Of a stretch of 64,000 nucleotides of DNA, positions 40,922-58,297 are shown in pieces. The number at the start of each line of letters is the position of its first letter. The first letter of the stretch is position 1. The stretch is from Escherichia coli (lineage in GTDB: Bacteria > Pseudomonadota > Gammaproteobacteria > Enterobacterales > Enterobacteriaceae), in assembly GCF_024223415.1 (NCBI RefSeq), contig NZ_CP100500.1; one strand, written 5' to 3'. The notes below the pieces were generated by a model. It searched no databases. It was not told the DNA's origin and saw only the letters and a program-made list of their open reading frames with translations. The translations under genes and the position numbers were made by a program.

Positions 40922-41451
40922 TGATCTATCCCCCAACAGGCTAATGCGCTTTCCTGGTCACGACGAATAACCTGTCCATAGCAGTTATTTGAACGGATAC
41001 GGCAGTCACGCCCACCATCCTTTATCCACCAGCGAATCGCCTCGCAGGCGCCTTTTCGATCACCGGCATTAAGCCGCTTATAAAACGTCGACGGGAAACA
41101 CTTACCGGGGCCAATGTTATAGGGACAGAATGACGCAATACCCGCTTTCTGTGGTTCGGTCAGAGGTACTTTAATATTGCGCTCCACCCATGCCAGTGCC
41201 TTATCACGTTCAATAGCGTTAACCTGGTCGCATTTTTCCTTCGACAGCTTCATTCCGGGAAAAACGGGTTTTCCATCCACCATCGTGGCACCCCGACAGA
41301 TGGTCCAGATGCCGGACCCATCGCGGTATGCCGTTGTGTGGTTACCCTCTTTTTCGTCCAGAAACTGATCAAGTATCTGAGGAGCAGATGCGCCAGCACC
41401 AATCAGCGCCAGAACGGCAGCCGACAGGCCGTATCTGATTTTTGCGTTCAT
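40918..41451 (-). CDS. SAR endolysin (T4-lysozyme-like GH24 with signal-arrest-release N-terminus)
   Basis: 177 aa; N-terminal weakly hydrophobic Gly/Ala-rich segment; resembles phage 21 R-type lysozyme. Confidence 0.82.
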
Positions 41452-41574
41452 GTATATTTATCAGGATCTAAAGGTTTATAACCCTGGATATATCAGGTAT
41501 ATAATCCAGTACCAGCATGTCTCATAAACATACCCGTTCAGGAAAACCAAACGACAACAGATGAGGCTTCAGAA

Positions 41575-41952
41575 ATGAACAGTAAAGAAAATTTGCGCAG
41601 TAGATTTTTGCAACTAATGACAGAAAAAGTTAAATCAGCGCTACTTCCACTTATGGTGGATAATAACGAAGCAACGAGCAGCATCCTTGCAGACCCTTAC
41701 GGTAAACTCTCGCATAAAACGCTGGATATTATTATGAGTGCATTAACACCCCGTATGCTTCAACACCTGAAACAAGATATTAACGCATGGGTGAATGAAG
41801 AATTGAGCCCCCCCTGTTCATGGGACAGACATTATGCATGGCAGCAAAAAATGAGGATTTTCAATTCATTATCACTAAAGTTCAGAGAACCGAAACAGCG
41901 TCCCTTCCCTCTGGAATCAGACAAAAAACAACCTGATCCCACAGGCCCGTAA
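41575..41952 (+). CDS. Hypothetical protein encoded on opposite strand between holin and endolysin
   Basis: 125 aa ORF with GAGG RBS and AT-rich promoter-like upstream; inverted-repeat hairpin downstream. Confidence 0.55.
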   Translation: MNSKENLRSRFLQLMTEKVKSALLPLMVDNNEATSSILADPYGKLSHKTLDIIMSALTPRMLQHLKQDINAWVNEELSPPCSWDRHYAWQQKMRIFNSLSLKFREPKQRPFPLESDKKQPDPTGP

Positions 41953-42108
41953 TATTTTGAATACCGTGATTATTGATATCACAATGAAAGCTATTCCGCA
42001 CAGTTATGCCCTGCTCCCCACGGGGCATGCCTCATGAAACGTTCCGGGCGTTTCATGTTCCCGGATTTTGTTAAAAGGTATATTATCCCCTCACTCCCGG
42101 GATATTCG

Positions 42109-42381
42109 TCATATTTCTTTTGGTGCCTTTTTCGCAATCTCAGCCACAGCATGTGCCGTAGCCGGAACATTACCGGCATTAGTTCGTTCCAGAATTTCGA
42201 GCAATATGCGGGTTCGTTTTTCCTGCTCCCGTTTGTTAAGGCGATAAGTAAGAACGCCAAGAATGATACTGAACGCCACGCCGATAATAAATCCCCAATC
42301 CTGCAGTGACAGGCTGGCAAAGAACGCAACAAGTCCTGCGCTGCCGTATGCAGCGTTACTGTATCGTTCGTCCATTCTCAT
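42109..42381 (-). CDS. Pinholin-like class II holin
   Basis: 90 aa, two TM segments and charged C-terminus; pattern similar to S21; paired with SAR endolysin. Confidence 0.72.
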   Translation of the reverse strand: MRMDERYSNAAYGSAGLVAFFASLSLQDWGFIIGVAFSIILGVLTYRLNKREQEKRTRILLEILERTNAGNVPATAHAVAEIAKKAPKEI

Positions 42382-42796
42382 AGTCCCTCACCTCCGCCAT
42401 CCGACATTACGGACGGCAGCAAGTCAGAATCTCGTTATAAAAAAGCCGCACGAAGAGGCTGTTTGTTCAGGTATTTTATCCAGTGCGCCGTAAAACCCCG
42501 ACCTTCAGGGTGTGGAGGATGTCAACATCAATAACTGACATTCTGCCCAAAGCTCCCGAAGATTCCCTTTGCACAATTTCACTGACCGGATCTCAGCACA
42601 AGCCACAGGGAATGGTCAGTGTGACGCTCTCTGTGGCCCCTCCTGAAAAGCCCTGTGGTTTAATCGCGACGGACCTGGCGCGGATATGAAGCAGGCCGTG
42701 AGCACGAGCCTGGAAATTTAGTGCCGACTACCGGAATTGAAGTGGTGGCCTGATGGTTACAACTAAACTGTTCTGCCGACTGAGGTAAGTCGGCAC

Positions 42797-42873
42797 TGGA
42801 CCGCCACCGGGGACTCGAACCTCGCACACTCAACTTAAAGGGTTGACGCTCTTTCCTGATGAGCTAGTGGCGG
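42797..42873 (-). tRNA. tRNA-like gene with non-canonical anticodon loop CCUUUAA (by analogy to Stx-phage argN/argO position)
   Basis: Cloverleaf with 7-bp acceptor, GCTC/GAGC D-stem, TTCGAGT T-loop, CCA encoded; C33 and one T-stem mismatch. Confidence 0.55.
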
Positions 42874-42874
42874 T

Positions 42875-42950
42875 TGGTGGCCCTTGCTGGATTTGAACCA
42901 GCGACCTGGCGATTATGAGTCGCTCGCTCTCACCACTGAGCTAAAGGGCC
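42875..42950 (-). tRNA. tRNA with CAU anticodon (ileX/ileZ-like tRNA-Ile2 or Met)
   Basis: GGCCCTTTAGCTCAGTGGTGAGAGCGAGCGACTCATAATCGCCAGGTCGCTGGTTCAAATCCAGCAAGGGCCACCA folds as canonical cloverleaf. Confidence 0.8.
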
Positions 42951-43070
42951 GGGCGCAGGATAATAACGTTACGAAATCAATGTTGCAAGCATTCAAAAAT
43001 CACCTGGTTAAAAATCACCCTTAGCTCCTCCACCAGCGCATTCACCATGTCTATCCGAGATAAGTGGCAC

Positions 43071-43097
43071 AAAAAAACCCGCTTGTGGGCGGGTTTT
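43071..43097 (-). terminator. Late-operon terminator tR' (target of Q antitermination)
   Basis: CCCGC-CACAA-GCGGG stem followed by U7 on minus strand, about 70-90 nt downstream of Q-like gene. Confidence 0.65.
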
Positions 43098-43160
43098 GTT
43101 TGCTTTTGCCATCACGTACAAAATCGGCAAAATATCAGATTTGCATGAAATATATGCCTT

Positions 43161-43856
43161 TCAATCTACTTTTGCAACACTTTGCTTTGAAAATGCCGCC
43201 TTTTGTTTTGAACGTGTTCTCATTACAAACAATAAAGCCTCACTATCCAGTCGGTGAAAAATGTGTTTCATTGCAACCCAGTGACGAGTAAATGTTTTGG
43301 ACCAGTTTTTAGTTGTCACTCCCGCCAGTAATGCCAGCTCCTGGTATTCATAACTTTCCCCACCAAAAAGTTCTGCTTTTACTGCCTGCGCCGCCAGCCA
43401 GATTAATTTTTTCAGGCGTTCCTGCGTTTTCCCTGCAATTTTTCTGGTACCTGATTGAGTATTAAATTCATTCCACGCCCACTGTGTTATCGCGATCTGA
43501 TATTCCCAACAAATACTCCCGCTGTAACTCCACAACAACCAGGCTTTATGATGTTCTTCAAGAGACAGAACAGCCCGCCGCCACGATGATGTCGAAAACT
43601 CAACCGGGCTGACCAGGGCAATTGATGAGCCTTTCGCCAGTGATTGTTTTCCCGGGATTGGTGGATTATCCCGCGTTATCATTTTTCCAGTCACTTCATC
43701 GCGGTACCGGATTTTTTTACGCCTGTAACGCCCTGTATCAAACATGGCATTCTCCTGCCAGGCCTCAAGCTGCCCTTTTGTTGATCCACTCAAATCGGCG
43801 GTGGCAATCATGAGTTGCTGACGAACAAACTGTAAATACTGGTTATTCATGCGCAC
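43161..43856 (-). CDS. Putative late-gene antiterminator Q (QuuQ/YdfT-like)
   Basis: 231 aa; sits downstream of rusA and DUF968 gene and upstream of tR' and lysis genes, as QuuQ in Qin prophage. Confidence 0.55.
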   Translation of the reverse strand: MRMNNQYLQFVRQQLMIATADLSGSTKGQLEAWQENAMFDTGRYRRKKIRYRDEVTGKMITRDNPPIPGKQSLAKGSSIALVSPVEFSTSSWRRAVLSLEEHHKAWLLWSYSGSICWEYQIAITQWAWNEFNTQSGTRKIAGKTQERLKKLIWLAAQAVKAELFGGESYEYQELALLAGVTTKNWSKTFTRHWVAMKHIFHRLDSEALLFVMRTRSKQKAAFSKQSVAKVD

Positions 43857-44212
43857 TCCAGTTCTGTGATTTTTATCCCCAACCGCCCACCAGGAACAAG
43901 CTGACCGCGCACAATATTAATTTCATCAAACTGCTCGTCGTCTATGAGCAGCCCAGCATGCGTCAGTGCATCCAGTGGTGCCTTCAGGATATTGTCCAGG
44001 TCACGACGGCGCTTATCCGGTGGCTCTGCAATAATTTTTATTGCCAGCCTTCCTGACAGGTTTAATTTCAGTCGCTGCTGGCGAACAATAAGCGCCACAT
44101 CACGGCGATAACGCTCACCGGCTTTTGATACAAAATATGTGCTGCCACGACGTCGCCAGTAGGTATTCACCGTCGGCGGGTAAGGCAAAACAAATTCTAT
44201 GCGTTCAGTCAT
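43847..44212 (-). CDS. rusA: Holliday junction resolvase RusA
   Basis: 121 aa; ..PDKRRRDLDNILKAPLDALTHAGLLIDDEQ.. matches RusA. Confidence 0.9.
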   Translation of the reverse strand: MTERIEFVLPYPPTVNTYWRRRGSTYFVSKAGERYRRDVALIVRQQRLKLNLSGRLAIKIIAEPPDKRRRDLDNILKAPLDALTHAGLLIDDEQFDEINIVRGQLVPGGRLGIKITELECA

Positions 44213-45268
44213 TCATGCTTTCCACTTCAGGACACCCGAATTTCTCGCGTGCATTAAAAAACGAATCAGCAACAACAGCTGGCTGCCGTGTTTTTCTTCA
44301 AAATCTTTTACCCCGGCGTGCAGTTCGTTATGACATTTACGGCACAGCGGAATAACAAACAAATCATCAGCCTTTGTTCCCATCCCTCCCAGTCCATGAC
44401 CAATGATGTGATGCGGATCATCTGCCTGATTACCGCACGTCATGCATTTCTGCGTTTTTACCCAGCGCGTGTATACAGGCATCTCTTCCCGTTGTGGTTT
44501 CTGGCGCTGGAGATACTGAGCCGGTGACTCCGGATCAACGGCAATGCTGACCACCGCCTCTTCCTGTGGCGGGTTTTGCTGGTGGGCGTGAGGCAGCGGC
44601 GCAAGATTTTTTGTGCGCTGCTTCAGTATGCTGGTGGCGGTCTGCTCTCCCGGTACGATGTCGCTTTCACGGTACATTGAGCGGATTTTTTCCGCACGCA
44701 ACCCCAGCGAACGACGTAATACCGCTTCCGGTAGCGCGTCCGCCACCTGATTGCGGACCGCCCACCAGGATAATTCAGCCAGAGATAATTCACGCTCCTG
44801 CGTACCGCTTATTGCGTGACCGATGACGTCAATCATCCATGCTGACAGGTTTTGATGAGCAAGTTGCTCGAGTGATTCGGATGTCTGGTCACGCAGCTGG
44901 TTGTCGCAGTGCCAGCACAACACCATCGCGCCGGTACCGTAACGATGTATGACGATTTCACTGTGATGATAGTCACCATGAGGCCACTGGCAGGATTTGA
45001 CATGACGCAACAGCCAGTCAGACAGTGCCCCAGCGCCGCCAACAGCACGAATCACCCGATCATCGCTGAAAAATGGCAGTAATGATTTATCCTCCGCCAG
45101 CGGCTGGCGAACGGCAGGGACGACTCCGGATGGCAGGCCGCACGTACTTTTCGGTTCCGGCTCCACCAGCACTCGAGGATTGTGAAATACCGGCATGGAT
45201 TCACGACCGGGCTTAAGGACCACCAGCCCGAGTTCCGGTACCAGAACAGGTCGAAGTAATACCCGCAC
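44213..45268 (-). CDS. DUF968 family protein (YdfU-like) with C-terminal HNH-like Cys/His motif
   Basis: 351 aa; C-terminal CMTCG..HHIIGHG..CRKCHNELH. Confidence 0.7.
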   Translation of the reverse strand: MRVLLRPVLVPELGLVVLKPGRESMPVFHNPRVLVEPEPKSTCGLPSGVVPAVRQPLAEDKSLLPFFSDDRVIRAVGGAGALSDWLLRHVKSCQWPHGDYHHSEIVIHRYGTGAMVLCWHCDNQLRDQTSESLEQLAHQNLSAWMIDVIGHAISGTQERELSLAELSWWAVRNQVADALPEAVLRRSLGLRAEKIRSMYRESDIVPGEQTATSILKQRTKNLAPLPHAHQQNPPQEEAVVSIAVDPESPAQYLQRQKPQREEMPVYTRWVKTQKCMTCGNQADDPHHIIGHGLGGMGTKADDLFVIPLCRKCHNELHAGVKDFEEKHGSQLLLLIRFLMHARNSGVLKWKA

Positions 45269-45269
45269 G

Positions 45270-45623
45270 TTACCTCCAGATCCGTTGCTGGAATGTGCGG
45301 GACGGACGCGGTGGGCGTTCGGAGTAAGGAAGCCTGACGGAGATTATCCAGTGACGATAATCGAGGCTGAGGGCTTTCTTAATCTCGTATCCGTGTCTGC
45401 GGTAACACTGAATCAGCCATTCGGCCTGTTCTTCAGTGCATGGAGGGTGTTGGTACCAGTCGGTTTTAAATACGCGAGAACGCCGCCCATGCCTGCTGGC
45501 ACGAACGGCATCAGAATTGTGATTTTTGGTATTGTGCGCCATTTGTTTTCTCTGCTGGCGCAGCAGGTGCCAGTTGTTCAGGCTAGCGTGCAGATTGTAA
45601 ACCAGAATTCCCGGAAAAAACAA
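45270..45623 (-). CDS. Hypothetical nin-region protein
   Basis: 117 aa ORF abutting DUF968 gene. Confidence 0.45.
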   Translation of the reverse strand: MFFPGILVYNLHASLNNWHLLRQQRKQMAHNTKNHNSDAVRASRHGRRSRVFKTDWYQHPPCTEEQAEWLIQCYRRHGYEIKKALSLDYRHWIISVRLPYSERPPRPSRTFQQRIWR

Positions 45624-45734
45624 AACTCGCTCAGGCTGGTATGCTAATCATCACAGTCATGTTTGATGGGGTTAGCTCACATTGGGTGAGGGTTCACGGC
45701 GTTTTCACTAATAATTTACCGTCCCCGCTATACA

Positions 45735-46127
45735 CTACTGCCCAGTTCTAACGAAGTTTTTGAAGGAAACAACTGCCTGATAGAGGTTTGGTTGACAGCC
45801 AAACATATTATCGCAAAAAGGCTGGATGAAAATTCTTGAGGATCCATCTTCATTTGGCATTTTACTCACTTGATAAGCGAGGAGTGGACTATTTGGTGAG
45901 GGGTTATAAGTGGAAATTAGCGTGTCTGTCGCCGTTTGAATTTTCCATGCGGAATTATTAGCCAACCAGAATTGCGCGCGTTTCCAATAAAAGTCACATT
46001 GCTTTTCATCTTTACATGTTAGTGGCTTCATTGCTTCTGCTTTCAACGCAGGATCGACCTTTGCTGCACACCCTCCCAACATTACTGTTGCAATCATTAC
46101 ACCTGCAACTAAAACAAGTTTCTTCAT
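45735..46127 (-). CDS. Lipoprotein (nin-region cargo)
   Basis: 130 aa; MKKLVLVAGVMIATVMLGGC lipobox; six further Cys. Confidence 0.65.
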   Translation of the reverse strand: MKKLVLVAGVMIATVMLGGCAAKVDPALKAEAMKPLTCKDEKQCDFYWKRAQFWLANNSAWKIQTATDTLISTYNPSPNSPLLAYQVSKMPNEDGSSRIFIQPFCDNMFGCQPNLYQAVVSFKNFVRTGQ

Positions 46128-46270
46128 CTCCCTGCCCCCATCAGTAAAAGTTCGGTTCTCTGATAACTAGAGTTAATCAACGGAAAAACGCCGAAGCGGG
46201 TTAAGTGTGGGTGCATTGAGGATGCCTGACTCATCAGAGGTGGCGAGGGATTTCTCCCTCGCCTGGTCTC

Positions 46271-46426
46271 TTACTCCTCAGGTTCGTAAGCTGTGAAGAC
46301 AGCGACCTCCGTCTGGCCGGTTCGGATTCGTACCTCGCAGAGGTCTTTCCTCGTTACCAGTGCCGTCACAATGACGGTAATACAGATGACGATCAGGGCG
46401 ACTAACATCGCCTTTTGCTGCTTCAT
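46271..46426 (-). CDS. hok: Hok/Gef family type I toxin
   Basis: 51 aa MKQQKAMLVALIVICITVIVTALVTRKDLCEVRIRTGQTEVAVFTAYEPEE, nearly identical to remembered HokD/RelF. Confidence 0.88.
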   Translation of the reverse strand: MKQQKAMLVALIVICITVIVTALVTRKDLCEVRIRTGQTEVAVFTAYEPEE

Positions 46427-46717
46427 AGCCTGCTTCTCCTTGCCTTTCGGCACGTAAGAGGCTAACCTAGATTTGCCGTTCATAGATTGAGCCTCAGATT
46501 AATGTTAAGCGTCTTGCCGGACGCGTAATGTTAACTGGGGCTTTTCTCTATCTGCCTTTTGGGGTTCATGCCTGAGACAGATAGCCTCAAGCACCCGCTG
46601 CAATTCTACTTAACTCTCCTTTTCCCGCAAACCATTTTTATCCCCAGCGGCAAATCGAATACACCACCAGCGCCACCGCCATCGCAATTCCTACCGTTGT
46701 GAATGCTTCAGGCCAGG

Positions 46718-47233
46718 TCATCGTAAAATATCCTCCGCGCTTATCAGTCCATTTCGTTTCAGGTAATCCATCGCCTTCTCCGGTAATTTGCAGTCCGGCT
46801 GAGCTTTTTTCAGTTGACTGACCAGTCGTTTAACCCACATTGTTAATTCGCCAACCTGATTACTGGATGCCAGTGGATTGTCGGCTTTACCCAGAATGAC
46901 AGCACAGCAGGCCTCTTTGAGCACCCAATCAACAGCATCTTTCCATGCTCCTGTTTCGACTGGTGGATTCTCACGCTTTACCTGTTCATAAAAGCGCACG
47001 GCTTTAACCAGTCCTTCTGATGTCACCGGGACTGACGGGGCAGTGAATAAGGCCTGAATCTCATAGCTCGGCCTGTCGTTGCAATCCTCTTTTGTCGGTA
47101 CATATTTCCAGTCACCAACCCACATCTTCTCCTGAAAGTCCGTAACGCCTTTTTTCACGTAGCGATATCGCCATACAACTGGTTTTGCCTGCCCTGCCGT
47201 TTCATGCCCTTCCTGATAATTAATCTCGCTCAT
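46718..47233 (-). CDS. Hypothetical nin-region protein
   Basis: 171 aa ORF. Confidence 0.55.
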   Translation of the reverse strand: MSEINYQEGHETAGQAKPVVWRYRYVKKGVTDFQEKMWVGDWKYVPTKEDCNDRPSYEIQALFTAPSVPVTSEGLVKAVRFYEQVKRENPPVETGAWKDAVDWVLKEACCAVILGKADNPLASSNQVGELTMWVKRLVSQLKKAQPDCKLPEKAMDYLKRNGLISAEDILR

Positions 47234-47383
47234 TCATCGGCCCACTCATCACAATATGCTTCGACCGGAGTTTTTCCTGCTTCGTAGTCATCACGCCAGG
47301 CTTCAGCATCAGCAGCACTTCCACCACGTAACTCTGCATAATCCATTAACAGTTCATTCCATTCTTCAAAACTGACGTTGTAT

Positions 47384-47581
47384 TTAGTTGAACCAAAACC
47401 AGCCATTTTGTTCTTCCTCTTCGTCTTTTATTTCGTGATATGAGTAATTGCAGTAGTTAAAGAAAATTTCTTTTGCTTCGTCATGAATTTCATCAGGTGT
47501 TGCGTCATCGTCCACTTCGAATACATCCTCAAAATCTCCACCAGCTATTCCCGTTTCAATAATTATTTTGAACTTTCGCAT
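47384..47581 (-). CDS. Small acidic hypothetical protein
   Basis: 65 aa ORF. Confidence 0.4.
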   Translation of the reverse strand: MRKFKIIIETGIAGGDFEDVFEVDDDATPDEIHDEAKEIFFNYCNYSYHEIKDEEEEQNGWFWFN

Positions 47582-47674
47582 TTCACTACCGCCCTTTCGG
47601 GTGGCCTCCTGCTGTTCTGAGGGTGCAGAAATCCCTACGGTTAAGGATTAAATTTTTAACAGTGCTAAATTTAA

Positions 47675-48031
47675 TTATTCAGTTCTTGATTTTGCCGCCC
47701 TGCGTATCCGCGCTTTCGCGTTACGCTCAATATGAATTAGCTTTTCTATATTTTTTCGCCTTTCCCGTTCCTCCTGGCGCAAGAGCCTTACATCATCTGC
47801 CAGTCTGGTTTCTCTTTTCGCCACAGAGAGCATCCAGTCAAATGGCTCCACAACTGCACCGCAGATTTTACAGCGGACCTGACGCTCTTTTTCGTCAACC
47901 CGGACAGAGGCGTGATGACAATATGGTCTTTCCGATGGCTCATAAAGAAAATTAACCTGATTACGTGGGTCATCCTCTTTTACCGGAAATAAAACAATAT
48001 TACTTAACTCATCTTCTGGTTTTATTTCCAT
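47675..48031 (-). CDS. Hypothetical protein with Cys/His cluster
   Basis: 118 aa; CHH..CKIC motif. Confidence 0.5.
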   Translation of the reverse strand: MEIKPEDELSNIVLFPVKEDDPRNQVNFLYEPSERPYCHHASVRVDEKERQVRCKICGAVVEPFDWMLSVAKRETRLADDVRLLRQEERERRKNIEKLIHIERNAKARIRRAAKSRTE

Positions 48032-48084
48032 GCTCCTCTCCTTTGATGCGAATGCCAGCGATAATTGAAGCCTGATAGCTAATT

Positions 48085-48522
48085 TTACTCACAGCCCCCC
48101 TGATAATTTCCCTGATAAAACGCCAGCACGCGCTGCATAACTTCGCTCTTCCTGCACTCGCAACAGATTATGTTCTGACGCCTGTCGTAGCGGCGTATTT
48201 CTCCGTCTGGTAATGACCAGATAAGGTCAGGATCAACCACAACCGGTTTTTTCACCTTTGCCCTGGATAGTTTTTTGCGGGCATTTTGCCAGTCCTTACG
48301 AGCCTGTTCAGACGGGAATAACCCGTAACCAGAGTTGTATACATCACCACTGGCAACCAGCTCTCTGGCAAGAACGCTCAGCAGATATCTTGTCGCACCT
48401 GTTTTCGCTTCCTGTTGTCGTAACGTCTCGCGCGCACTCCGGCGTACCAGCTCAACAACCTGCCCTTTAATTTTTTCCCGCTCTTCTTGTGTAAATACTT
48501 TTGCCATAAGCGCCTCCGGCAA
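48085..48522 (-). CDS. Hypothetical nin-region protein
   Basis: 145 aa ORF. Confidence 0.5.
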   Translation of the reverse strand: MPEALMAKVFTQEEREKIKGQVVELVRRSARETLRQQEAKTGATRYLLSVLARELVASGDVYNSGYGLFPSEQARKDWQNARKKLSRAKVKKPVVVDPDLIWSLPDGEIRRYDRRQNIICCECRKSEVMQRVLAFYQGNYQGGCE

Positions 48523-49293
48523 TCACTTTTCCGATACAACACGGCGGGAAGAATCAGTAATCTGTCGAACAATATCCCGGTGCTTGTTCAGCTCCCGCAG
48601 CGCGGCGCAGACTCGCTCCCACTTCTGAACATGATTTTTCGCCCGACGCAATTCGCGGTTTGCCATATGCAGCGATGGTAAAACCAGGTCATCCGCTCGG
48701 GTTTCAGTAAACGATGGCAACGATTGCACAATATCAGCCACAGTTTCTGTTTTAATATCTTCCTGTGTTGCAGCTTCCTGTACTGGTAACGCAACACCTG
48801 CTGGCTGAGGAAAGGCTTTACCATCAGTTTCCGCTACCGATGCAGACTCCGGCCCTGCCGGTAAGTTGTCGTCCGGCAGGAAGTAACGAAATTTACCGTT
48901 CCGATTAACGCGTGCCAGCCGCCCCGTTGCGGTTACTACCGCCAGTGTGGAAGCAACCTTGCGAGTGCTGACACCGAACTTACCCGCCAGTTCCTCACAC
49001 GTTTTAGCCCCCTCCTGACTGATAAACTCAATCATCATGTCTGCGGTAACTTTTTGTTCGACCTCCCCGGTCAGCATATCCTGTGCTTCAGATTTTACTG
49101 GTCGCTCTTCGGTTACCCGGGATTCACCTTCGCCAGCCAGAAACCAGGTGTGACCAGTTTTATCAACGACGCCATTTCTTTTGAGTTCCCACAGCTCGTT
49201 CAGCACTTCTTCACGACTGATATCAAGTCGCGCAGCCAGCTCTACCGATGTGGCTTTTCCCATCGCTTTCAGTGCGTCAAAAACAGTCTCCAT
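48523..49293 (-). CDS. Putative DNA-binding protein with two winged-helix-like segments
   Basis: 256 aa; ..ATSVELAARLDISREEVLNELWELKRNGVV.. and ..KTCEELAGKFGVSTRKVASTLAVV.. Confidence 0.5.
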   Translation of the reverse strand: METVFDALKAMGKATSVELAARLDISREEVLNELWELKRNGVVDKTGHTWFLAGEGESRVTEERPVKSEAQDMLTGEVEQKVTADMMIEFISQEGAKTCEELAGKFGVSTRKVASTLAVVTATGRLARVNRNGKFRYFLPDDNLPAGPESASVAETDGKAFPQPAGVALPVQEAATQEDIKTETVADIVQSLPSFTETRADDLVLPSLHMANRELRRAKNHVQKWERVCAALRELNKHRDIVRQITDSSRRVVSEK

Positions 49294-49325
49294 AAATTTC
49301 CTCCCGGTAAAAATTACTTCTCAAC

Positions 49326-49868
49326 TCAGACAAAACCAGCCGCTTTCCGGCGTTCATACTCCTGTTTCAGCAACTCAATTGGCGTTGGTCCCGACGGGCG
49401 TTTGGGGGCCGCCAGTTGTCGCCGGACTGGCGGAACGCTGAGGCCCATACCAACATGCTTTGACCATTTCGTCAGTTGCCGTTCTGCAAACCGTTTTAAC
49501 TCCCCTTCGGTCATCTGGCGTTCAATCCCCTTTGAACGCATCTCGAGGCATATGTGATACAGCACAGGCTGAGACCACGGGTATTTATCGCTTCCGTCGT
49601 ATCGCCAGGACTCATTGCGCCAGCGTCGGTACTCCTCCATCACAGCCCCCACCGTCAGACCGAATGGATTGGCCCCGCTTTCCGGAATCAGTGCCACAAA
49701 CTCAGCCAGGTCAGGAGGCCATGTTTCACCCGCCCGGCAGCGGTCCATGCACTGGCGGCAGACCTGCCGGATTTGCTGCTCAGTCATCGCGCCAATCTGT
49801 GCAATCCAGAGCTTCGAAGGTGCGGCCCCGTTCTTCCGGGTCCAGCGGTCCGAATAAACCTCCCCCAT
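49326..49868 (-). CDS. Replication protein P-like (DnaB helicase loader)
   Basis: C-terminal half resembles lambda P (YPW..LT..ELRR..); start uncertain (ATG 49868 or 49787; ORF track start 49991 overlaps upstream gene). Confidence 0.65.
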   Translation of the reverse strand: MGEVYSDRWTRKNGAAPSKLWIAQIGAMTEQQIRQVCRQCMDRCRAGETWPPDLAEFVALIPESGANPFGLTVGAVMEEYRRWRNESWRYDGSDKYPWSQPVLYHICLEMRSKGIERQMTEGELKRFAERQLTKWSKHVGMGLSVPPVRRQLAAPKRPSGPTPIELLKQEYERRKAAGFV

Positions 49869-50790
49869 GAGTTCCCACAGCTTCCAGGCTGTTTCCGTCG
49901 CTGATAAATCCGTTTTCACGTTCCCACTGCTCACGTGCTGCCCGAATTTCCTGAACTGCCCGTGATGCGGTGCCACCTGGTGCTGCTGCATGGTTCACCC
50001 CCTTGCTGACTGGTTTAACCTGCGCCCTGACGTGATTTACGTGACGGGCGAATTTCTGCTCCCACTGAACCTGTGTGAACACTTTCCCCTCCGCCATCCA
50101 GTAATCCCGGAAGGCGGCAAGTTCAGCAGGTGTAAATTCCGGTTCCGGCAAAGCCGCTCCCCACAACGCAGCCCGCCGTCGAAAATCCAGCGACGGATGC
50201 CAGCCATCGGCCATCGGAAATTTCCCGATGGGTTCACTCAGGCCATCCGGAAATTCAGGTTCCGCCACCTGCAACGGCGTACCGTTCGGTTCACTGGTCG
50301 GAGCACTCTCGCGCACGCGCGCGTTATGTGTGGGGTTTAATTCTTTATCTGTATCTTTATTAGTTGCCTTTGTGTTTGCGTCATGTTCAAACACCACACC
50401 AACATTTGTTTGAACACCTGTTAAATCTCTCTCTTGTTTTGTTTGAACATCTGCTTCCTTTCTGCTTCTTCTGGCCTGAACAGATGCTTTTCCGGCGGCT
50501 GATTTTTTGGTTAATTTTTCCCTGACTGATGCCAGATCTTCCTCAATCCGAAGATGCACCCATTCATCGCCGTTATCGTGAAAAAACTCCCGCAAGGATG
50601 GCTCCACATCAGCCCATCGCTCATTAGTCAGACGGGCAATTTTTGCCAGCCTGTTTTTAGGTATTGGCTTTCCTGTTTGCCAGTAATTGAACATCAGCAA
50701 CAAATACGCACCGTGCTCCTCTGCTGATAAATGCATGGTGTCAGCCAGGTAATCAGCGATGTACAGTTGCATGTATGGTAATGCGGCCAT
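49780..50790 (-). CDS. Replication initiation protein, YdaU/DUF1376-like N-terminal domain (O position)
   Basis: 336 aa; N-terminal YMQLYIADYLADTMHLSAEEHGAYLLLMFNYWQ. Confidence 0.65.
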   Translation of the reverse strand: MAALPYMQLYIADYLADTMHLSAEEHGAYLLLMFNYWQTGKPIPKNRLAKIARLTNERWADVEPSLREFFHDNGDEWVHLRIEEDLASVREKLTKKSAAGKASVQARRSRKEADVQTKQERDLTGVQTNVGVVFEHDANTKATNKDTDKELNPTHNARVRESAPTSEPNGTPLQVAEPEFPDGLSEPIGKFPMADGWHPSLDFRRRAALWGAALPEPEFTPAELAAFRDYWMAEGKVFTQVQWEQKFARHVNHVRAQVKPVSKGVNHAAAPGGTASRAVQEIRAAREQWERENGFISDGNSLEAVGTHGGGLFGPLDPEERGRTFEALDCTDWRDD

Positions 50791-50860
50791 AATTGCCTCT
50801 TCTGATACCGAATTCCTTAATCACGTACTACCGAAAGCGATCCGGTATAACTATTGCCAG

Positions 50861-51286
50861 TCAGTGCATCACCACAGCATTACCCGCCGGGCCACCACGA
50901 TTCATCTGATTGAAACCGGCGATTGCCACTGCGATAAAATCATCAGCGTCTCTCACCAGCCGTTCTCGTGTCTCCAGCAGCTCCCTGAAATAGGCTGAGC
51001 TGTGGCTACGCATTCTGGCCACCAGCAAAGGCGGCATTGCCTTTTCGATCGCTGGTAGTAACGCCTGAATTTTTTCAACCGCATCAGGGGTGTCTTTCTC
51101 CACCCAGCGGAAAATTTTCTGGGTATTACGGGCCAGGGCTTCCGGATGGCTGTCGTCATACAGTTCCGGGAACGTCATACCCAGCTCAAAATAAGCCCGG
51201 GTTATTTCAGCTGCCGGAACTTTTTCGCCATCCGGACGCGCCCAGGCATTCATCGCCATGCGGATGTGTTCATGCTTGATTTTCAT
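50861..51286 (-). CDS. YdaT-like protein (cII position)
   Basis: 141 aa; starts MKIKHEHI as remembered for Rac YdaT. Confidence 0.6.
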   Translation of the reverse strand: MKIKHEHIRMAMNAWARPDGEKVPAAEITRAYFELGMTFPELYDDSHPEALARNTQKIFRWVEKDTPDAVEKIQALLPAIEKAMPPLLVARMRSHSSAYFRELLETRERLVRDADDFIAVAIAGFNQMNRGGPAGNAVVMH

Positions 51287-51581: not shown

Positions 51582-51633
51582 TACCCACAGGTAAACAAAA
51601 GTCAATACCCTTGGGTTGTTTACCTTGCGGTAA
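51582..51633. promoter_or_regulatory. Right operator region: three TACC(C)-N-(G)GGTA-type half-palindromic sites between cro-like and repressor genes
   Basis: TACCCACAGGTA, TACCCTTGGGTT, TTACCTTGCGGTAA. Confidence 0.55.
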
Positions 51634-51652
51634 TCGCATCTATTATTTACCT

Positions 51653-52072
51653 ATGGACAAATATGAATTTAGACGACAACAACTCATCAAAATTCGTGAT
51701 GAGAAATGCGATGGTAAAGCGGTTAACGTGGCCAGAAAGATCGGTCGCGAGCCTTCTTATGTATCAAGAATGTTGTACCCAGAGGGGAAAAAAGGAAAAA
51801 AACGGATCGCTGATGATATGGTGGAGATTATAGAAGAGTCCTTTGGGTTACCCCGGGGATGGATGGATGGTATCGTTTCATCATCAACGAACACAGCCTC
51901 CAATTATGAAACAAGGGTTCTAACGCCACGACAACGTATTTTTTTAGATCTCTTAGACGAACTGCCTGAAAGTGAAGCGGATAACTTATTAAAAACTCTT
52001 GAAGAGAAAAAACAGTATTACAATATGATCTACGAAGAAATCCGTAAAAAGAAAGCACAAAACGCATCATAA
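51653..52072 (+). CDS. CI-like prophage repressor (HTH, no obvious peptidase domain)
   Basis: ATG at 51653 gives about 139 aa; HTH ..AVNVARKIGREPSYVSRML..; divergent from cro-like gene. Confidence 0.7.
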   Translation: MDKYEFRRQQLIKIRDEKCDGKAVNVARKIGREPSYVSRMLYPEGKKGKKRIADDMVEIIEESFGLPRGWMDGIVSSSTNTASNYETRVLTPRQRIFLDLLDELPESEADNLLKTLEEKKQYYNMIYEEIRKKKAQNAS

Positions 52073-52115
52073 CTCACCAAACAACCAGTCACCAGTTAAG
52101 ATACATCAAAAAAAT

Positions 52116-52152
52116 TACCCATGGGTATTTACTTCTTGGATACCCATGGGTA
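52116..52152. promoter_or_regulatory. Left operator: two identical perfect 12-bp palindromes TACCCATGGGTA, 25 bp centre to centre
   Basis: Sites at 52116-52127 and 52141-52152, same arms as the right operator sites. Confidence 0.65.
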
Positions 52153-52474
52153 TCCTTTCTTTCATACCAACCCACCCCGCCCCACAGAACGCAGGGCAAT
52201 ACTTCGAGTTACCAGGCAGTGGTCAGGGGTTAAGTAGCCAGCCCGAGGCGTATGAACATGACGGCAGGGTTTAACTTTAACTATGCAGCAGGTTTTTGTT
52301 CCGCTACCCCGGCGTTAAGGGGAAACAGAGGATTTCTCAGTGGGCGAAGTCAAACATCAGAATGGAAGGCATCCCGGGATCGGCAAAGAAGCAGCAATGG
52401 CGCTTTATATTGACATCAGCGCCATTGCCGGACAGGTAAGAATTATCAGAGCGGTAACTAAGCGGTATGTGCCT

Positions 52475-52675
52475 TTACTTCAGAAAGGCTCCGGTGATTA
52501 CACCGAAGATATTGTCAACGATTTCCTCATCGAATTGCGAGGACTCATCTTCAGTTACAAGGTGACCACAATTTTTGCAGATGGCTCCCGCGAAACTGTC
52601 AGAGCCCTGCGGCTTAAAGGATGTGTCGAAGACTTCGCCACCACATTCTGGGCAAGAAAACTTGATTGTATTCAT
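52475..52675 (-). CDS. Small zinc-ribbon protein (CPECGG..CKNCGH), reverse-oriented within leftward early leader
   Basis: ATG at 52675 preceded by AGAGGAAA RBS; 66 aa with two CxxC pairs. Confidence 0.55.
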   Translation of the reverse strand: MNTIKFSCPECGGEVFDTSFKPQGSDSFAGAICKNCGHLVTEDESSQFDEEIVDNIFGVITGAFLK

Positions 52676-53292
52676 AACCAATTTCCTCTCGGGTAACAGA
52701 CCCCTCAGAGGATACCACCTCGCCTGACGTGGTTAAAAGCAGGCACACAACACGAAAGCGCACGGCGAGGTAGCTGGTTCATATATAGCCTGTCGTTAAA
52801 TTTTCGTCGACCGTGCGCTTCCGGTTGTGGCACTCCGCGAAATGGCGCGGCGGTAAGCATGGCGGGGTTCCCTTCCCCTTGAGGACACCGGGTTGTCAGG
52901 TTGACCATGCGCCTGAGTGACAACCCCGCTGCAACGCCCTCTGTTATCAATTTTCTGGTGACGTTTGGCGGTATCAGTTTTACTCCGTGACTGCTCTGCC
53001 GCCCTTTTTAAAGTGAATTTTGTGATGTGGTGAATGCGGCTCAGCGCACGCGGAACAGTTAAAACCAAAAACAGAGTTATGGGTGGATTCTCTGTATCCG
53101 GCGTTAATTGTTAACTGGTTAACGTCACCTGGAGGCACCTGGCACCGCATCAACAAAGTTCACTTCGGTGATGAAAGGTAAGAGAAAATGTTGAATGTAG
53201 CTATTGAAAACCAGTACGGGTGGAATTATAGTGCACCTGCACCTCATAAAACGGGTGCCGGGCGTGGAAACCCGAAAGTTACTCGAGCGCAT

Positions 53293-53316
53293 AACCGCGC
53301 CGAAGCGGTTTTTTTA
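53293..53316 (+). terminator. Intrinsic terminator in leftward early leader (tL-like)
   Basis: AACCGC-GCCGAA-GCGGTT followed by T7. Confidence 0.6.
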
Positions 53317-53484
53317 TGCGTAATGCACAGCCACATTCAGATAATGGTGGGGCGTGCAGGGCAGCTGCAAGGCTGGCCGGGTTCTCGAGTGACCGGTATT
53401 TCCACCCCTGTACGTCTCGCCACCCTTATGGTCGTGGAAAGCCTCGGTGGTGAGTTAATTAACTTAACACTTGAGGATGCCATC

Positions 53485-54036
53485 ATGGCTACTACCCTTA
53501 CCCTTTCTCACCCTGACGTAACCATTGAAAATGGTCGCGCTGTCACTACGTCTATTGCGATCGCAGAATTCTTCGGCAAGCAGCATCACCATGTTGTTCA
53601 AAAAATAGAGGCCCTCGAATGTTCTGAACGCTTTTTAACCAGCAACTTTTCGCGGGTTAAATTCGAGCACCGTGGCAATACCTACAATGCCTACCAAATC
53701 ACCAAAAACGGCTTCGTTTTCCTGGTGATGGGCTTCACGGGCAAAAAGGCCGCTGCATTCAAGGAAGCCTACATTGCCGAGTTCGACCGCATGGAGGAAG
53801 AACTGCGCCGGAATAACACCACACCCGCTGACAAAATAATCCCGGGTGATGGCCGCACCCTGGTTATCCGCTTCGACGAACACGGCTACATCAAATTCAC
53901 CGAAACCGTTCCTGATGGCGCACTGGTCTGTACTCTGGATACTTTCCGTTTTTATCTGGAAAAGCAGGGATGGACTCTCATAAACCGGGGCGCAATTAAA
54001 AATATGACCGTCGAGCAGTTGCTGAGTATTAAATAG
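53485..54036 (+). CDS. Rha family phage regulatory protein
   Basis: ATG at 53485 with GAGGA RBS; ..TTSIAIAEFFGKQHHHVVQKIEAL.. Rha motif; ORF track start 53188 is an upstream extension across the terminator. Confidence 0.72.
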   Translation: MATTLTLSHPDVTIENGRAVTTSIAIAEFFGKQHHHVVQKIEALECSERFLTSNFSRVKFEHRGNTYNAYQITKNGFVFLVMGFTGKKAAAFKEAYIAEFDRMEEELRRNNTTPADKIIPGDGRTLVIRFDEHGYIKFTETVPDGALVCTLDTFRFYLEKQGWTLINRGAIKNMTVEQLLSIK

Positions 54037-54081: not shown

Positions 54082-54303
54082 ATGATTGCTCATCACTTCG
54101 GAACCGATGAAATACCACGCCAGTGCGTCACTCCCGGCGATTACGTTATTTACGAAGGCCGGACATATGTTGCATCGGCAAACAATATCGAAAAGCAAAA
54201 ACTTTATATCCGTGATTTCACTACAAAAACATGCATTACTGACCGCATGATTAAAGTCTTCCTCGATCGTGATGGTTTACCTGTAAAGGCGGAGGCATGG
54301 TGA
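54082..54303 (+). CDS. Hypothetical protein preceding the exonuclease gene
   Basis: 73 aa ORF with AGGAG RBS. Confidence 0.5.
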
Positions 54304-54422
54304 GCTGTAATAAATAACTGACCCAATACGACATTCAGCTTAATAAATACATAAGGGTCGATTCTTATATGCCAGCAATGGCAGGGATTCGCACAACCTT
54401 AAAACAGCAATGAGGTTTATCA

Positions 54423-56876
54423 ATGAGCACTGATAAAGAAACTTTTGCGCTATATTGCGAAGCTAAAAATGACAAAGTCAGAAAACGCCTTGGGATTAAA
54501 GGTGGTTTTTACTGGACTACAGCAAAAAAATTATCTGTTGCCATCTCCCGCTGCATTACCGCAATGGATGATAACGATTATGATGAAGACGACTTTAAAA
54601 AACCTGTTCGCGTCCATTTGCCCGTTGTTGATGACCTTCCACCGGAAGGCGTGTTTGATACCGAATTCTGTAACCGGTATGAAAAAGGCGGCGAAGATGG
54701 CATCACAATGATATTTATCGCGCCTCCGCCATCCGCGCAGGACAAACCAGCCAGCACTGACAACACCAATGTTAATGGCGAAGACATGACTGAGATTGAG
54801 GAGAATATGCTTCTGCCGGTTTCAGGTCAGATTCTGCCTGTTCGCTGGCTGGCGCAACACGGCGGCGAAAAACCAGTAACGCACGTTTCGCGGGATGAAC
54901 TGCGCTCATTACATAACGCACAGGAAGAAAAACTTCCCGCCGTTACCGCGCTGGCCATCTCAAATAAAGCAGCGCAACTCGAACCGCTGGAGATTCGGGA
55001 TTTGTACAAACTGGTGCGGGACACTGACAAAGTTTTTCCCGCCCCCGTAAATTCAGACCTGGGACTGATGACCTCCTTCATCGAAGCATACCTAGACGCT
55101 GACTACACTGATCGTGGTCTGCTTACAAAAGAGTGGATGAAAGGAAATCGTGTTTCTCGCATCAGTCGCACACCATCCGGCGCTAACGCTGGCGGCGGTA
55201 TTCTTACCGATCGCGGCGAAGGTTTTGTGCATGATAATGCGTCAATGGCATTCGATGTTGCTACAGGAAAACTGGCTCGTTCGATGGATGTGGATATTTA
55301 CAACATGCATCCTTCACATACCAGACGTGTTAACGAAATTATCGCAGAAAATGATCCCTGTTTCTCCGTCTTCCTTAAGGCTTTTCTGAACATGCCAGGC
55401 GGGATGGATTATTCCCGCGCCATCGTGGTTGCCTCCGTGAAAGAAGCACCGGTTGGTATAGAGGCTATGCCCCACCGCGTCACCGAATACCTGAATAAAG
55501 TGCTGACCGAAACCGATCATGCCAACCCTGATCCGGAAATCGTGGATATTGCCTGCGGTCGTTCCTCTGCCCCAATGCCGCAGCGTGTAACAGAAGAAGG
55601 AAAACAGGATGATGAAGAAAAACCGCAACCGTCTGGCGCAATGGCAGATGAACAGCCAACGACTGAAACAGTGGAACCGGATACAACTGAACATCATCCG
55701 GACACGCAGCCGCTGGATGCTCAGCCGCAGGTGAATTCTGTTGATGCGAAATATCAGAAACTGCGGGCAGAACTCCATGAATCCCGGAAAAACATTCCGC
55801 CCCAAAATCCTGTCGACGAAGACAAGTTGCTGGCAACCTCTGGCGGAGAATTTGCTGAAGGGATTAGCGACCCGAATGATCCGAAATGGGTGAAGGGGAT
55901 TGAAACCCGCGATTCTGTGAACCAGAATCAGCAAGAAACGGAACAGAACGACCAGAAAGCGGAACAAAACAGCCCAAATGTGCAACGAAAAGAGCCAAAA
56001 GCGAAACAATCCGAACCAGTAGCGCAACAGGAACCGGAAAAAGTCTGCACCGTCTGCGGTCAGAGCGGTGTCGACAACTGTCCTGATTGTGGCGTGGTGA
56101 TGGGCGACGCAACATACCAGGAAATGTTCGATGAAGAGAATCAGCCTGAAGTTCAGGAAAATGATCCAGAGGAAATGGAAGGCTCTGCGCATCAGAACAA
56201 GGAGAACTCTGGCGGCAATCAGCATCATGCCAGCGATAGTGAAACTGGCGAGACGGCAAATCCCTTAATTAAGATAACCAGTCATCACAAATATAAGTCC
56301 ACAAGCAAAACGTGGTATCACCTGATGATCGACCTTGAAACAATGGGAACCAACACCAATGCACCCATAGTAGTTATTGGTGCGGTTTTCTTCGACCCGG
56401 AAACAGGGGAAATCGGGCCGGTATTTTATATCGTTATCAGCCTGACTGACGCAATGAATACAGGGGCTGTTCCTGATGGTGGCACCATCGAATGGTGGCT
56501 GAAGCAGTCCAGCGAAGCCAGAGCTGCCATTTTAACTGACCAGGTAAAAATGAAAGATGCCCTTTTGCGTTTTCGGGAATTCGTCAATGAACACTCTGAT
56601 GAAAAATTCGTTCAGGTGTGGGGTAATGGCGCAACGTTCGATAACGCAATTTTGCGCACCTCATACGAACGTCTGGACATCCCCTGTCCGTGGCATTACA
56701 GCAACGATCGTGATGTACGCACAATCGTTGAGATGGGGAAAATCACAGACTTCAATGCCAGAAGCGTAATTCCATTCGAAGGCGTGCGCCATAATGCTCT
56801 GGATGACGCTCTTCACCAGGCAAAATACGTAACAGCCGCTATACAAAAACTGATCCCGAATCAGGCTGATTTTTAA
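54423..56876 (+). CDS. RecE-like N-terminal region fused to a C-terminal DEDDh-type 3'-5' exonuclease domain
   Basis: 817 aa; ..[45 protein letters not shown].. matches remembered RecE N-terminal region; C-terminus has [26 protein letters not shown] motifs. Confidence 0.72.
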
Positions 56877-56940
56877 TGTTCAACCCCGGTCGTCGCCCAC
56901 CGGCTATAGTGGCGGCGACCATGATTAGCGAACGACGCTC

Positions 56941-57189
56941 ATGGCAAGACTTATTCTGCTCACTGAGTGGGCAAAAGAGGAATTCAGTGAACCGGTCCCT
57001 ACTCCGGGTACGTTAAGTAAATACGCTAAAGCCGGAATGATATTTCCTCTCCCCAAAAAAGTAGGAAGGCACTGGCGAGTGGATCCACGCGCTCGCTTTG
57101 TCGGAATGGTAAACAAGCCGGAGGTGATCGCCACAGATCACCCTGCTTTGAAGAGGATACTGGAAGATGGCGCGCCCGCGAAAATATAA
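56941..57189 (+). CDS. xis: Excisionase-like protein
   Basis: 82 aa basic protein overlapping int start. Confidence 0.65.
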   Translation: MARLILLTEWAKEEFSEPVPTPGTLSKYAKAGMIFPLPKKVGRHWRVDPRARFVGMVNKPEVIATDHPALKRILEDGAPAKI

Positions 57190-58297
57190 AACCGATGTTC
57201 CGGGTTTATCTCCGTATTTTGACAAAAGAAATAACAAAGTTTACTGGCGTTACAGGCATCCCATCACAGGTAAAAATCATGGACTCGGCAGTATTGACCA
57301 GAAACTGGCGGAAACCATTGCAGCAGAAGCGAACAGCCGTCTTGCCAGACAACAAATGGAGCAAATTCTCAGTCTGCAGGAGAAAATTATTAGTGATACC
57401 GGCGGCGCATCAACCGTTTCCATTTTTCTGAATAATTACAGAAAAATTCAACAGGAAAGATATGAGAACGGAGAGATCAAACTCAGCACGCTGAAGCAAA
57501 AAGCGGCTCCTCTCAGGGTGTTTGATGAACGTTTTGGAGCCAGGCCGCTAGATGCCATAACCGTAAAAGATGTGGTATCGGTGCTGGAAGAATACAAGGC
57601 AAAGGGACATAACAGAATGGGACAAATTTTCAGGAAGGTATTGATCGATGTTTTCCGGGAGGCTCAACAAACGGGTGATGTTCCGCCAGGCTTTAACCCG
57701 GCTGAATCGGCAAAAAAACCGCAAGTGCGGATATCAAGACAGCGACTGACTTTTGATGAGTGGATGATGATTTATAACGCAGCGGAAAAGGATGGTTACT
57801 TTTTACAGCGCGGCATGCTGCTGGCACTGATGACGGGCCAGCGTCTTTCGGATATTTGCAAAATGCAGTTTTCGGATATCCGGGATGGTTACCTTCATGT
57901 CGAACAGCAAAAAACAGGAGCCCGGATAGCCATTCCTCTGGCTCTGCGTTGCGACAAATTAAATCTTACCCTGGGTGACGTGGTGTCATCCTGTCGTGAT
58001 TACATCCTTAGTCCGTGGTTATTGCACCATCATCACGCTAAGGGGATGGGTAAGCGCGGCGGGATGGTTAAACCAGCAACATTAACAGTCGCATTTAAAA
58101 AAGCCCGGGATTCTGTGGATTACAACTGGCGTGCTAATGGCACGCCACCCTCTTTCCATGAGCAAAGATCTTTATCAGAACGATTGTTCAGAGAACAGGG
58201 AATTGATACCAAAATTTTGCTGGGCCATTCGAATCAAAAAATGACCGATATTTACAACGACGCACGCGGTAAAGAGTGGAAAAAACTGGTTATTTGA
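57167..58297 (+). CDS. int: Tyrosine-type site-specific integrase
   Basis: 376 aa; adjacent to prophage end at ompW 3' end. Confidence 0.88.
   Translation: MARPRKYKTDVPGLSPYFDKRNNKVYWRYRHPITGKNHGLGSIDQKLAETIAAEANSRLARQQMEQILSLQEKIISDTGGASTVSIFLNNYRKIQQERYENGEIKLSTLKQKAAPLRVFDERFGARPLDAITVKDVVSVLEEYKAKGHNRMGQIFRKVLIDVFREAQQTGDVPPGFNPAESAKKPQVRISRQRLTFDEWMMIYNAAEKDGYFLQRGMLLALMTGQRLSDICKMQFSDIRDGYLHVEQQKTGARIAIPLALRCDKLNLTLGDVVSSCRDYILSPWLLHHHHAKGMGKRGGMVKPATLTVAFKKARDSVDYNWRANGTPPSFHEQRSLSERLFREQGIDTKILLGHSNQKMTDIYNDARGKEWKKLVI

Follow-up and report, generated by a model that had tools for sequence, protein, structure and literature searches.

A RecE-family scaffold joined to a predicted DEDDh 3'-5' exonuclease in a lambdoid prophage of Escherichia coli

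What might be the task of a protein that follows the recombination exonuclease RecE over much of its length, ends in a nuclease domain of another family and is encoded without an annealase partner? This question is raised by a gene at 54423..56876 (plus strand) in a 64,000-nucleotide stretch of Escherichia coli DNA (contig NZ_CP100500.1, assembly GCF_024223415.1), the whole of which was analysed and is called the window in what follows. The gene starts with ATG, is preceded by a Shine-Dalgarno sequence read as GAGG on the plus strand (54412-54415, 7 nt before the ATG) and codes for 817 amino acids (aa), in which a RecE-family scaffold is followed by a predicted DEDDh 3'-5' exonuclease domain. 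To the question of function we give a tentative answer, to which we assign a probability of about 40%: the gene would encode a nuclease of modular build that a Rac/Qin-like lambdoid prophage makes early in lytic growth and that acts as an accessory 3' DNA-end exonuclease and not as a RecET-type recombinase.

When the protein was compared by BLASTP with RecE from E. coli K-12 (Rac prophage, b1350), aa 58-616 (54594..56270, plus strand) matched RecE residues 50-591 with 70% identity, and no similarity was found past RecE residue 591. At the DNA level, homology to recE detected by blastn spans 54761-56269 at 78.5% and then ends, which places the homology breakpoint at about 56269/56270. The Pfam model Exonuc_VIII (PF06630) matches aa 57-189 (E 2.9e-26), and the NCBIfam equivalog model for exodeoxyribonuclease VIII (NF007259) scores 1019.2 bits, under its curated cutoff of 1269, with a match confined to profile positions 1-620 of 877. 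For the PD-(D/E)XK nuclease of RecE (DUF3799/PF12684; about residues 592-866) no Pfam match was obtained in the 817-aa protein, and neither BLASTP nor phmmer detected similarity to RecE 592-866. The nuclease domain of RecE has been delimited as residues 564-866 (PMC11611040), and the break in similarity, as located by these alignments, falls where the RecE nuclease module begins. An earlier note on this DNA, made from the letters and their open reading frames (ORFs), had described a RecE-like N-terminal region of about 200 aa; the homology is real, but it extends over about 560 aa (aa 58-616) and leaves out the first 57 aa, which are not of the K-12 RecE sequence type and are of a type that occurs in other RecE-family proteins. 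The two proteins thus have in common the Exonuc_VIII region, a helical core and a CxxC-x8-CxxC motif, and their genes occupy the same operon slot with kil upstream and xis-int downstream. They differ in their first 57 aa, in the replacement of the RecE nuclease domain by a DEDDh domain of predicted opposite polarity, and in the lack of a recT gene at the present locus. Because the RecE nuclease domain and a RecT partner are lacking and the equivalog score lies under the curated cutoff, the 817-aa protein is judged not to be a RecE equivalog.

Several parts can be distinguished along the protein, all encoded on the plus strand. An N-terminal alpha/beta domain (aa 1-100, 54423..54722) precedes a mainly helical RecE-family core (aa 112-390, 54756..55592), which was modelled by AlphaFold2 (AF2) as a block with predicted local distance difference test (pLDDT) values of 73-98, mostly above 85. 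Acidic low-complexity linkers (aa 391-632, 55593..56318) follow, lying on both sides of a zinc-ribbon-like CxxC-x8-CxxC motif (aa 541-556, 56043..56090), and the DEDDh exonuclease domain (aa 633-817, 56319..56876) ends the protein. The linkers have isoelectric points (pI) of 4.4-4.6 and a pLDDT below 50 at aa 393-437, and the scaffold domains are acidic as well, with a pI of about 5. Since the ratio of nonsynonymous to synonymous substitution rates (dN/dS) is 0.07 for aa 1-100 and 0.18-0.24 for the DEDDh domain, the folded parts of the protein are seen to be under purifying selection; the linkers are relaxed, with values of 0.37-0.58. The zinc-ribbon-like motif is also found in K-12 RecE, at aa 516-531, and gives a weak match to DUF2321; no mention of it was found in the literature looked at.

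The C-terminal domain was assigned by a Pfam search to PF16473 (Rv2179c-like), which matches aa 633-805 with an E value of 1.5e-67 over model positions 2-175 of 177. The putative catalytic residues D637, E639, D740, H790 and D795 align with D7, E9, D119, H186 and D191 of DexA from phage T4, and all five DEDDh residues (DxE in Exo I, D in Exo II, Hx4D in Exo III) are invariant in 11 out of 11 aligned sequences. Among solved structures, the sequence search retrieved T4 DexA alone (PDB 8kel; E 1.5e-8); a PDB profile search with the family alignment (A1) does not count as independent of this result, as DexA is included in that alignment. As a single-sequence AF2 model of the C-terminal 236 aa reached a pLDDT of 38, it is the Pfam match and the DexA alignment that carry the fold assignment. 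From these matches the protein is placed in the PF16473 DEDDh family and predicted to be a 3'-5' exonuclease. The earlier note had read DnaQ-like motifs at the C-terminus in place of the RecE PD-(D/E)XK nuclease, and this is borne out by the Pfam match, by the residues aligned with DexA and by the lack of similarity to the RecE nuclease; the domain search which it had proposed leads to PF16473 and not to the canonical RecE nuclease fold.

DexA, like the protein described here, has the PF16473 fold and the DEDDh residues (about 30% identity; PDB 8kel/8ken), is the product of a phage early gene and is itself a 3'-5' DNA exonuclease, whereas it differs in being a free-standing protein of 227 aa from a virulent phage and in possessing extra loops. 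The tetramer contacts S87 and D90 of DexA map to K709 and D712, and the residues proposed for recognition of 5-hydroxymethylcytosine (5hmC), W152 and D169, map to S760 and I774, with an alignment that is loose around D169. The founder of the Pfam family, Rv2179c from Mycobacterium tuberculosis, is a standalone bacterial exoribonuclease and is considered more distant than DexA, because the sequence search of the PDB did not retrieve it. A further relative is EcD, a DexA homologue from E. coli of the HREX type, which digests 5hmC-DNA and T4 DNA and protects against T4 in assays made from a plasmid only (Kang et al., NAR 2025, PMC12153337). By means of the published cloning primer, an EcD-like protein of 189 aa was recovered (starting with MIDTET, with A78 and ending with PFLNI) which is 34% identical to the C-terminal domain described here (E 5e-33). 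Both are prophage-borne in E. coli and carry homologous DEDDh domains. They differ in that EcD stands alone in a P2-like early operon beside a DNA methyltransferase, in that the Trp with a proposed role in 5hmC recognition is present in the EcD-like protein and replaced by Ser in the present one, and in that EcD has A78 in place of DexA D90 where D712 is retained here; defence activity has been demonstrated for EcD only. As far as can be judged from the alignment, the 817-aa protein is homologous to HREX proteins but lacks the sequence features proposed to mark this type. The match to the EcD primer is encoded at 6404-6970 (minus strand) of an IMG/VR locus (L089, contig 2671181127_000013), in an operon of a P2-like prophage with integrase, repressor, DNA methyltransferase, exonuclease and a gpA-like nickase, and the 'bacterial' defence exonuclease of PMC12153337 itself appears to be a phage early gene.

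In order to see whether a recombination system accompanies the gene, the six-frame ORFs of the window were screened by phmmer for RecT, Red-beta, Erf, Sak4, lambda Exo, the RecE nuclease, Gam, Abc2 and SSB (single-stranded DNA-binding protein), and none of them was found; the same screen recovers each seed protein in Rac, lambda, P22 and HK620. With PHROGs, too, no annealase, SSB or anti-RecBCD gene could be annotated in the early region. That no annealase follows and that xis and int come next, as the earlier note had stated, is thus confirmed, with xis at 56941..57189 and int at 57167..58297 (both plus strand). No recognisable annealase, SSB, Gam or Abc2 was found either in any of the 58 related IMG/VR loci, within up to 10 kb upstream, or by the phmmer screen in the complete genome of phage mEp460_ev081. 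By annotation, the gene lies outside any lambdoid Rec module, its neighbours being kil and xis.

The right arm of the prophage, beside terminase and cos, contains 7 Chi sites (GCTGGTGG on the late-gene strand; 41026..51026, minus strand), located at 41026, 43030, 45163, 45220, 46664, 47538 and 51019. In the prophage 7 Chi sites are in the active orientation versus 2 in the inactive one, and all 7 active sites lie within 41.0-51.0 kb. The probability of at least 7 Chi sites in 10 kb is 1.4e-4 at the average density of E. coli and 3e-11 when calculated from base composition. The orientation of the right-arm sites would suit RecBCD entry at cos and fits the use of host RecBCD. In an analysis of 314 enterobacterial lambdoid phages (Zheng, Casjens, Davidson, Amundsen and Smith, Genome Res 2025, PMC12315714), 68 had no Rec module, 62 of these 68 possessed 8 or more actively oriented Chi sites, which cluster at the right end, and one phage lacking a Rec module was found to grow better with RecBCD. 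The same study mentions DnaQ-type nuclease genes "very near int", which were not counted as Rec-module genes, and states that 3'-5' exonucleases usually inhibit homologous recombination. The prophage in the window, which may be a hybrid, appears to fit the class with no Rec module and a Chi-rich right arm (LLS functional type), with one active site fewer than is typical there, and its gene fits the int-proximal DnaQ nucleases and the RecE-related proteins of that study, although the main text of Zheng et al. neither describes a fusion of a RecE scaffold with a DEDDh domain nor gives a function for it. An own correlation of Chi sites with DEDDh phages was dropped, the ratios of active to inactive sites being 7/2, 7/2 and 8/2 for DEDDh phages versus 5/0 for a RecET phage.

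The gene is far from being a curiosity of one strain. Out of 5426 complete E. coli genomes, 1411, or roughly a quarter, contain DNA of the DEDDh domain that megablast detects, and prophages of enterohaemorrhagic E. coli (EHEC) are among the carriers. A copy with 99.8% identity in E. coli DG341-1 bears the RefSeq name "3'-5' exonuclease", and the PHROGs profiles phrog_2082 and phrog_20376, both named 'exonuclease', cover the architecture; phrog_255, of the same name, is matched as well. The earlier note had implied that the gene was unusual, and in this respect it was mistaken: the architecture is common and already annotated, neither rare nor new, and the gene class has been noted in the literature, is catalogued in RefSeq and PHROGs and is widespread in E. 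coli prophages. In a phage collection, four prophage-derived phages possess a full-length version with about 67% identity. Many others, among them the isolates mEp460_ev081, Evi, Tritos and HannyBb as well as the PPompW prophage records, contain an equally long protein which has aa 465-817 in common with the present one and an N-terminus of another type; where the N-terminal coding region of a phage differs, the stretch upstream of the ATG (54361-54416) is kept. Isolated phages with an intact copy of the gene are mEp460_ev081, Evi, Tritos and 689R5. Among the 58 IMG/VR loci with a relative of the domain, 47 encode fusions of about 820 aa and 11 encode standalone proteins of about 190 aa. Wherever the gene order was inspected, kil or dicB/ydfD comes first, followed by exo, xis and int. 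Standalone forms take the same exo-xis-int position in ST64B/LLS-like Salmonella prophages. In one of these (L014, 4703-6570), a 432-aa PF04447 dATP/dGTP pyrophosphohydrolase is followed by a 189-aa DEDDh exonuclease, xis and int, which hints at a pairing with nucleotide metabolism in the ST64B/LLS-like phages. One apparent '183-aa standalone' protein with 91% identity (P0003) was rejected, since it represents only a piece of a full-length gene broken by a frameshift, and it gives no evidence for a free-standing ancestor.

The scaffold itself has few relatives. With the helical core as query, Foldseek yielded no match below E = 2 in the PDB, and a structure search of AFDB50 returned family members only. 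A search with aa 100-400 against 1.84 billion representative sequences recovered just 127 relatives. Long core-bearing representatives (about 71) were sorted by Pfam and phmmer according to their C-termini, and about 15 of them end in a PD-(D/E)XK nuclease, about 14 in a DEDDh domain, 2-3 in RecT and about 35 in none of these, so sorted, the RecE N-terminal scaffold occurs with at least four alternative C-termini. The roughly 35 scaffold proteins without those domains fit the nuclease-less 'RecE-2' proteins of Zheng et al. (PMC12315714), and the linker segment aa 475-616 is common to phages with another N-terminal type. In two proteins, P0121 (703 aa) and P0243 (615 aa), the RecE core is followed directly by a RecT domain with no nuclease between; these could be true fusions, deletions or artefacts of gene calling. 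A speculative and somewhat unlikely idea is that the RecE N-terminal region is a self-standing acidic targeting scaffold which carries interchangeable cargo (PD-(D/E)XK, DEDDh, RecT or nothing); in its DEDDh version it would be a dedicated accessory of lambdoid phages that lack an annealase and depend on RecBCD/Chi, or else act in counter-defence as an enzyme directed to the same host partner. If this were true, the partner of the scaffold would explain both the present protein and why full-length RecE is superior to its nuclease domain in linear-linear recombination. The natural domain swaps offer in any case a handle on the function of the RecE N-terminal region, which is relevant to recombineering with full-length RecE.

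For the early-lytic end-trimming nuclease which we prefer, the following course of events can be outlined. The gene sits at the distal end of a repressor-controlled early-left operon and its product would act after induction. It consists of a RecE-family scaffold with two folded acidic domains, acidic linkers and one zinc-ribbon-like motif, to which a DexA/Rv2179c-type DEDDh domain with intact catalytic residues is joined where RecE has its 5'-3' PD-(D/E)XK nuclease. As a predicted two-metal-ion 3'-5' exonuclease it would take nucleotides off DNA 3' ends, and the trimming of 3' single-stranded tails or of oligonucleotides would leave blunt or 5'-tailed ends. Such products would be unsuited to a phage annealase, while blunt ends are the substrate at which host RecBCD enters, and for recombination-dependent replication the phage would depend on RecBCD, Chi and RecA of the host. 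The acidic scaffold may be a module for protein interaction or targeting which brings interchangeable C-terminal cargo to one common partner or site. As to the substrate, this reading is favoured by the fact that the closest solved structure by sequence, T4 DexA, belongs to a DNA exonuclease.

Several considerations weigh against it. Substrate (DNA or RNA), polarity and partner are predicted from family membership, and the Pfam family is named after an exoribonuclease. E. coli has ExoI, ExoX and ExoVII, and the need for a phage enzyme that trims ends is not obvious. The targeting role of the scaffold is a guess, because the scaffold is acidic and has no structural relatives. The annealase screen used seed sequences and not profiles, such that an annealase of an unrecognised type could escape. 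The 7 active Chi sites are one below the number of at least 8 found in 62 of the 68 phages without a Rec module; mEp460_ev081 and Tritos have 7/2 and 8/2 active and inactive sites, respectively, and the RecET phage with 5/0 indicates that Chi does not discriminate in this small sample. When the earlier note suggested a job different from Red/RecET-type recombination, it found indirect support only, in the absence of a recognisable annealase from all 58 loci and in the oriented Chi cluster.

Other explanations share part of this evidence. An HREX-type prophage defence or superinfection exclusion, in which the DEDDh domain would selectively degrade incoming phage DNA with modified bases as is reported for EcD and T4, is unlikely. 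EcD is reported to digest both 5hmC-DNA and the DNA of T4 and to guard E. coli against this phage (PMC12153337), an EcD-like protein is 34% identical to the C-terminal domain, both genes reside in prophages and PADLOC gives a weak match to a CRISPR-associated DEDDh model (E 4.7e-5). However, the 5hmC residues are not kept (W152 to S760, D169 to I774), the tetramer-breaking substitution at D90 is absent (D712), EcD itself was assayed from a plasmid only and the 630-aa RecE scaffold would be left without a role. Moreover, expression in the lysogen is doubtful, because the operon is controlled by a repressor, terminator-like hairpins (52116-52152 and 53293-53310) lie upstream of the gene and a promoter/terminator scan for an internal promoter found no excess of promoter-like sites (10 versus 9.2 +/- 2.6 in shuffled sequences). 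Just as doubtful is a role in nucleotide salvage or nucleic-acid clearance, by which RNA 3' ends or oligonucleotides such as RecBCD products would be converted to mononucleotides for phage replication. It would agree with the role accepted for DexA, the closest solved relative, which includes scavenging of host DNA (PMC12153337), with the exoribonuclease activity of the family founder and with the standalone 189-aa homologue that follows a PF04447 dATP/dGTP pyrophosphohydrolase gene in ST64B/LLS-like Salmonella prophages; a bulk scavenger, on the other hand, needs no large conserved scaffold. Host Orn, ExoI and similar enzymes already carry out such degradation, and we know of no lambdoid phage that degrades the host chromosome.

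In an anti-defence protein, the scaffold would bring the exonuclease to a host factor, and the target to be degraded would be a nucleic acid of host immunity that has a free 3' end, such as retron multicopy single-stranded DNA (msDNA) or a signalling or guide oligonucleotide. The scaffold has the style of a partner-binding module, its exchange of cargo resembles that of modular counter-defence proteins and the gene lies in an early lytic operon beside the host-takeover genes kil and DicF. We nevertheless consider such a role improbable, as no known anti-defence family matched in the libraries searched and the position next to xis and int is constant across phages whatever the defence repertoire of the host. 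Still less probable is a reverse-polarity recombination nuclease, a true replacement of RecE that would resect 3' strands to give 5' tails, whose annealing would fall to a host factor or to a phage annealase so far unrecognised. The gene does occupy the operon slot of recE in Rac (kil ... recE-recT ... xis-int), has the full RecE scaffold in common with it, and has relatives in which the RecE core is joined to RecT; moreover, some DnaQ-type nucleases (phage epsilon34) have been accepted as members of Rec modules when packed among Rec genes (PMC12315714). Against this, a recognisable annealase is found in 0 of the 58 loci, 3'-5' exonucleases are stated usually to inhibit homologous recombination and int-proximal DnaQ genes are excluded from Rec modules (PMC12315714), and known annealase loading uses 3' tails (PMC11611040). 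That the gene is a decaying mosaic remnant without current function is very improbable. Rac recE is silent in K-12, the prophage lies in a rearranged chromosome context and elsewhere copies of the gene are split or frameshifted (L011), but here the ORF of 817 codons is intact and has a good Shine-Dalgarno sequence, the catalytic residues are intact, dN/dS is low on the folded domains (0.07-0.24) and the gene is carried by isolated, propagating phages.

Whichever of these functions applies, genes of this type are often mislabelled "exodeoxyribonuclease VIII", and their recognition is of value for annotation; such proteins should not be counted as RecE/RecET recombinases or taken as proof that a prophage has a recombination system of its own. 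The biological interest is moderate and lies in an exonuclease of predicted opposite polarity on a RecE scaffold in phages that would rely on host RecBCD and Chi.

The early-left operon to which the gene belongs starts on the plus strand with a repressor-like helix-turn-helix (HTH) gene (51611-52072; PHROGs), and its first part (51611..54036; PHROGs and Rfam) includes in addition phrog_21318, a Rha-like regulator and three RNAs identified on the same strand by Rfam, namely the small RNAs (sRNAs) DicF (52953-53004) and IsrK (53239-53315) and the C4 antisense RNA (53340-53427). The direct upstream neighbour of the exonuclease gene in the same operon is kil (54082..54303, plus strand), which encodes an FtsZ inhibitor (phrog_294, E 2e-34; RefSeq). 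A mechanically called ORF of 282 aa (53188-54036) overlaps IsrK and C4; the true Rha-like coding sequence (CDS) probably starts near 53488 (MATTLTL...), and RefSeq annotates the long form in DG341-1. The early-right operon contains genes for Cro-like and CII-like (YdaT) proteins, a DUF1376 initiator, a P-like loader, a Ren-like protein, hok/sok, DUF968/HNH, RusA and Q.

Past int the prophage adjoins ompW (58343-58981, minus strand), and the copy in DG341-1 also belongs to a lambdoid prophage beside ompW. The left flank of the window (1-12400; aspS/ruvB/znuA/lpxM/mepM) and the right flank (58343-64000; ompW-yciC-yciB-yciA-tonB) are not neighbours in reference E. coli, which suggests an inversion or an exchange between two lambdoid prophages, and the prophage in the window may therefore be a hybrid unable to excise cleanly; in DG341-1, the same prophage is bordered on the left by yciE/trp. 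In the nin region, a toxin-antitoxin locus of the hok/sok type (46271-46596, minus strand) comprises a MokW-like ORF (phrog_251) and a sok antisense RNA (RF01794, 112 bits). Two tRNA genes are located between Q and the holin gene (42800-42950, minus strand), corresponding to tRNA-Arg and tRNA-Ile in DG341-1. Finally, between the stop codon of the exonuclease gene and the start of xis lies a GC-rich inverted repeat (56888-56921; GGTCGTCGCC ... GGCGGCGACC), which is imperfect, is not followed by a T-run and may form a processing or regulatory hairpin.

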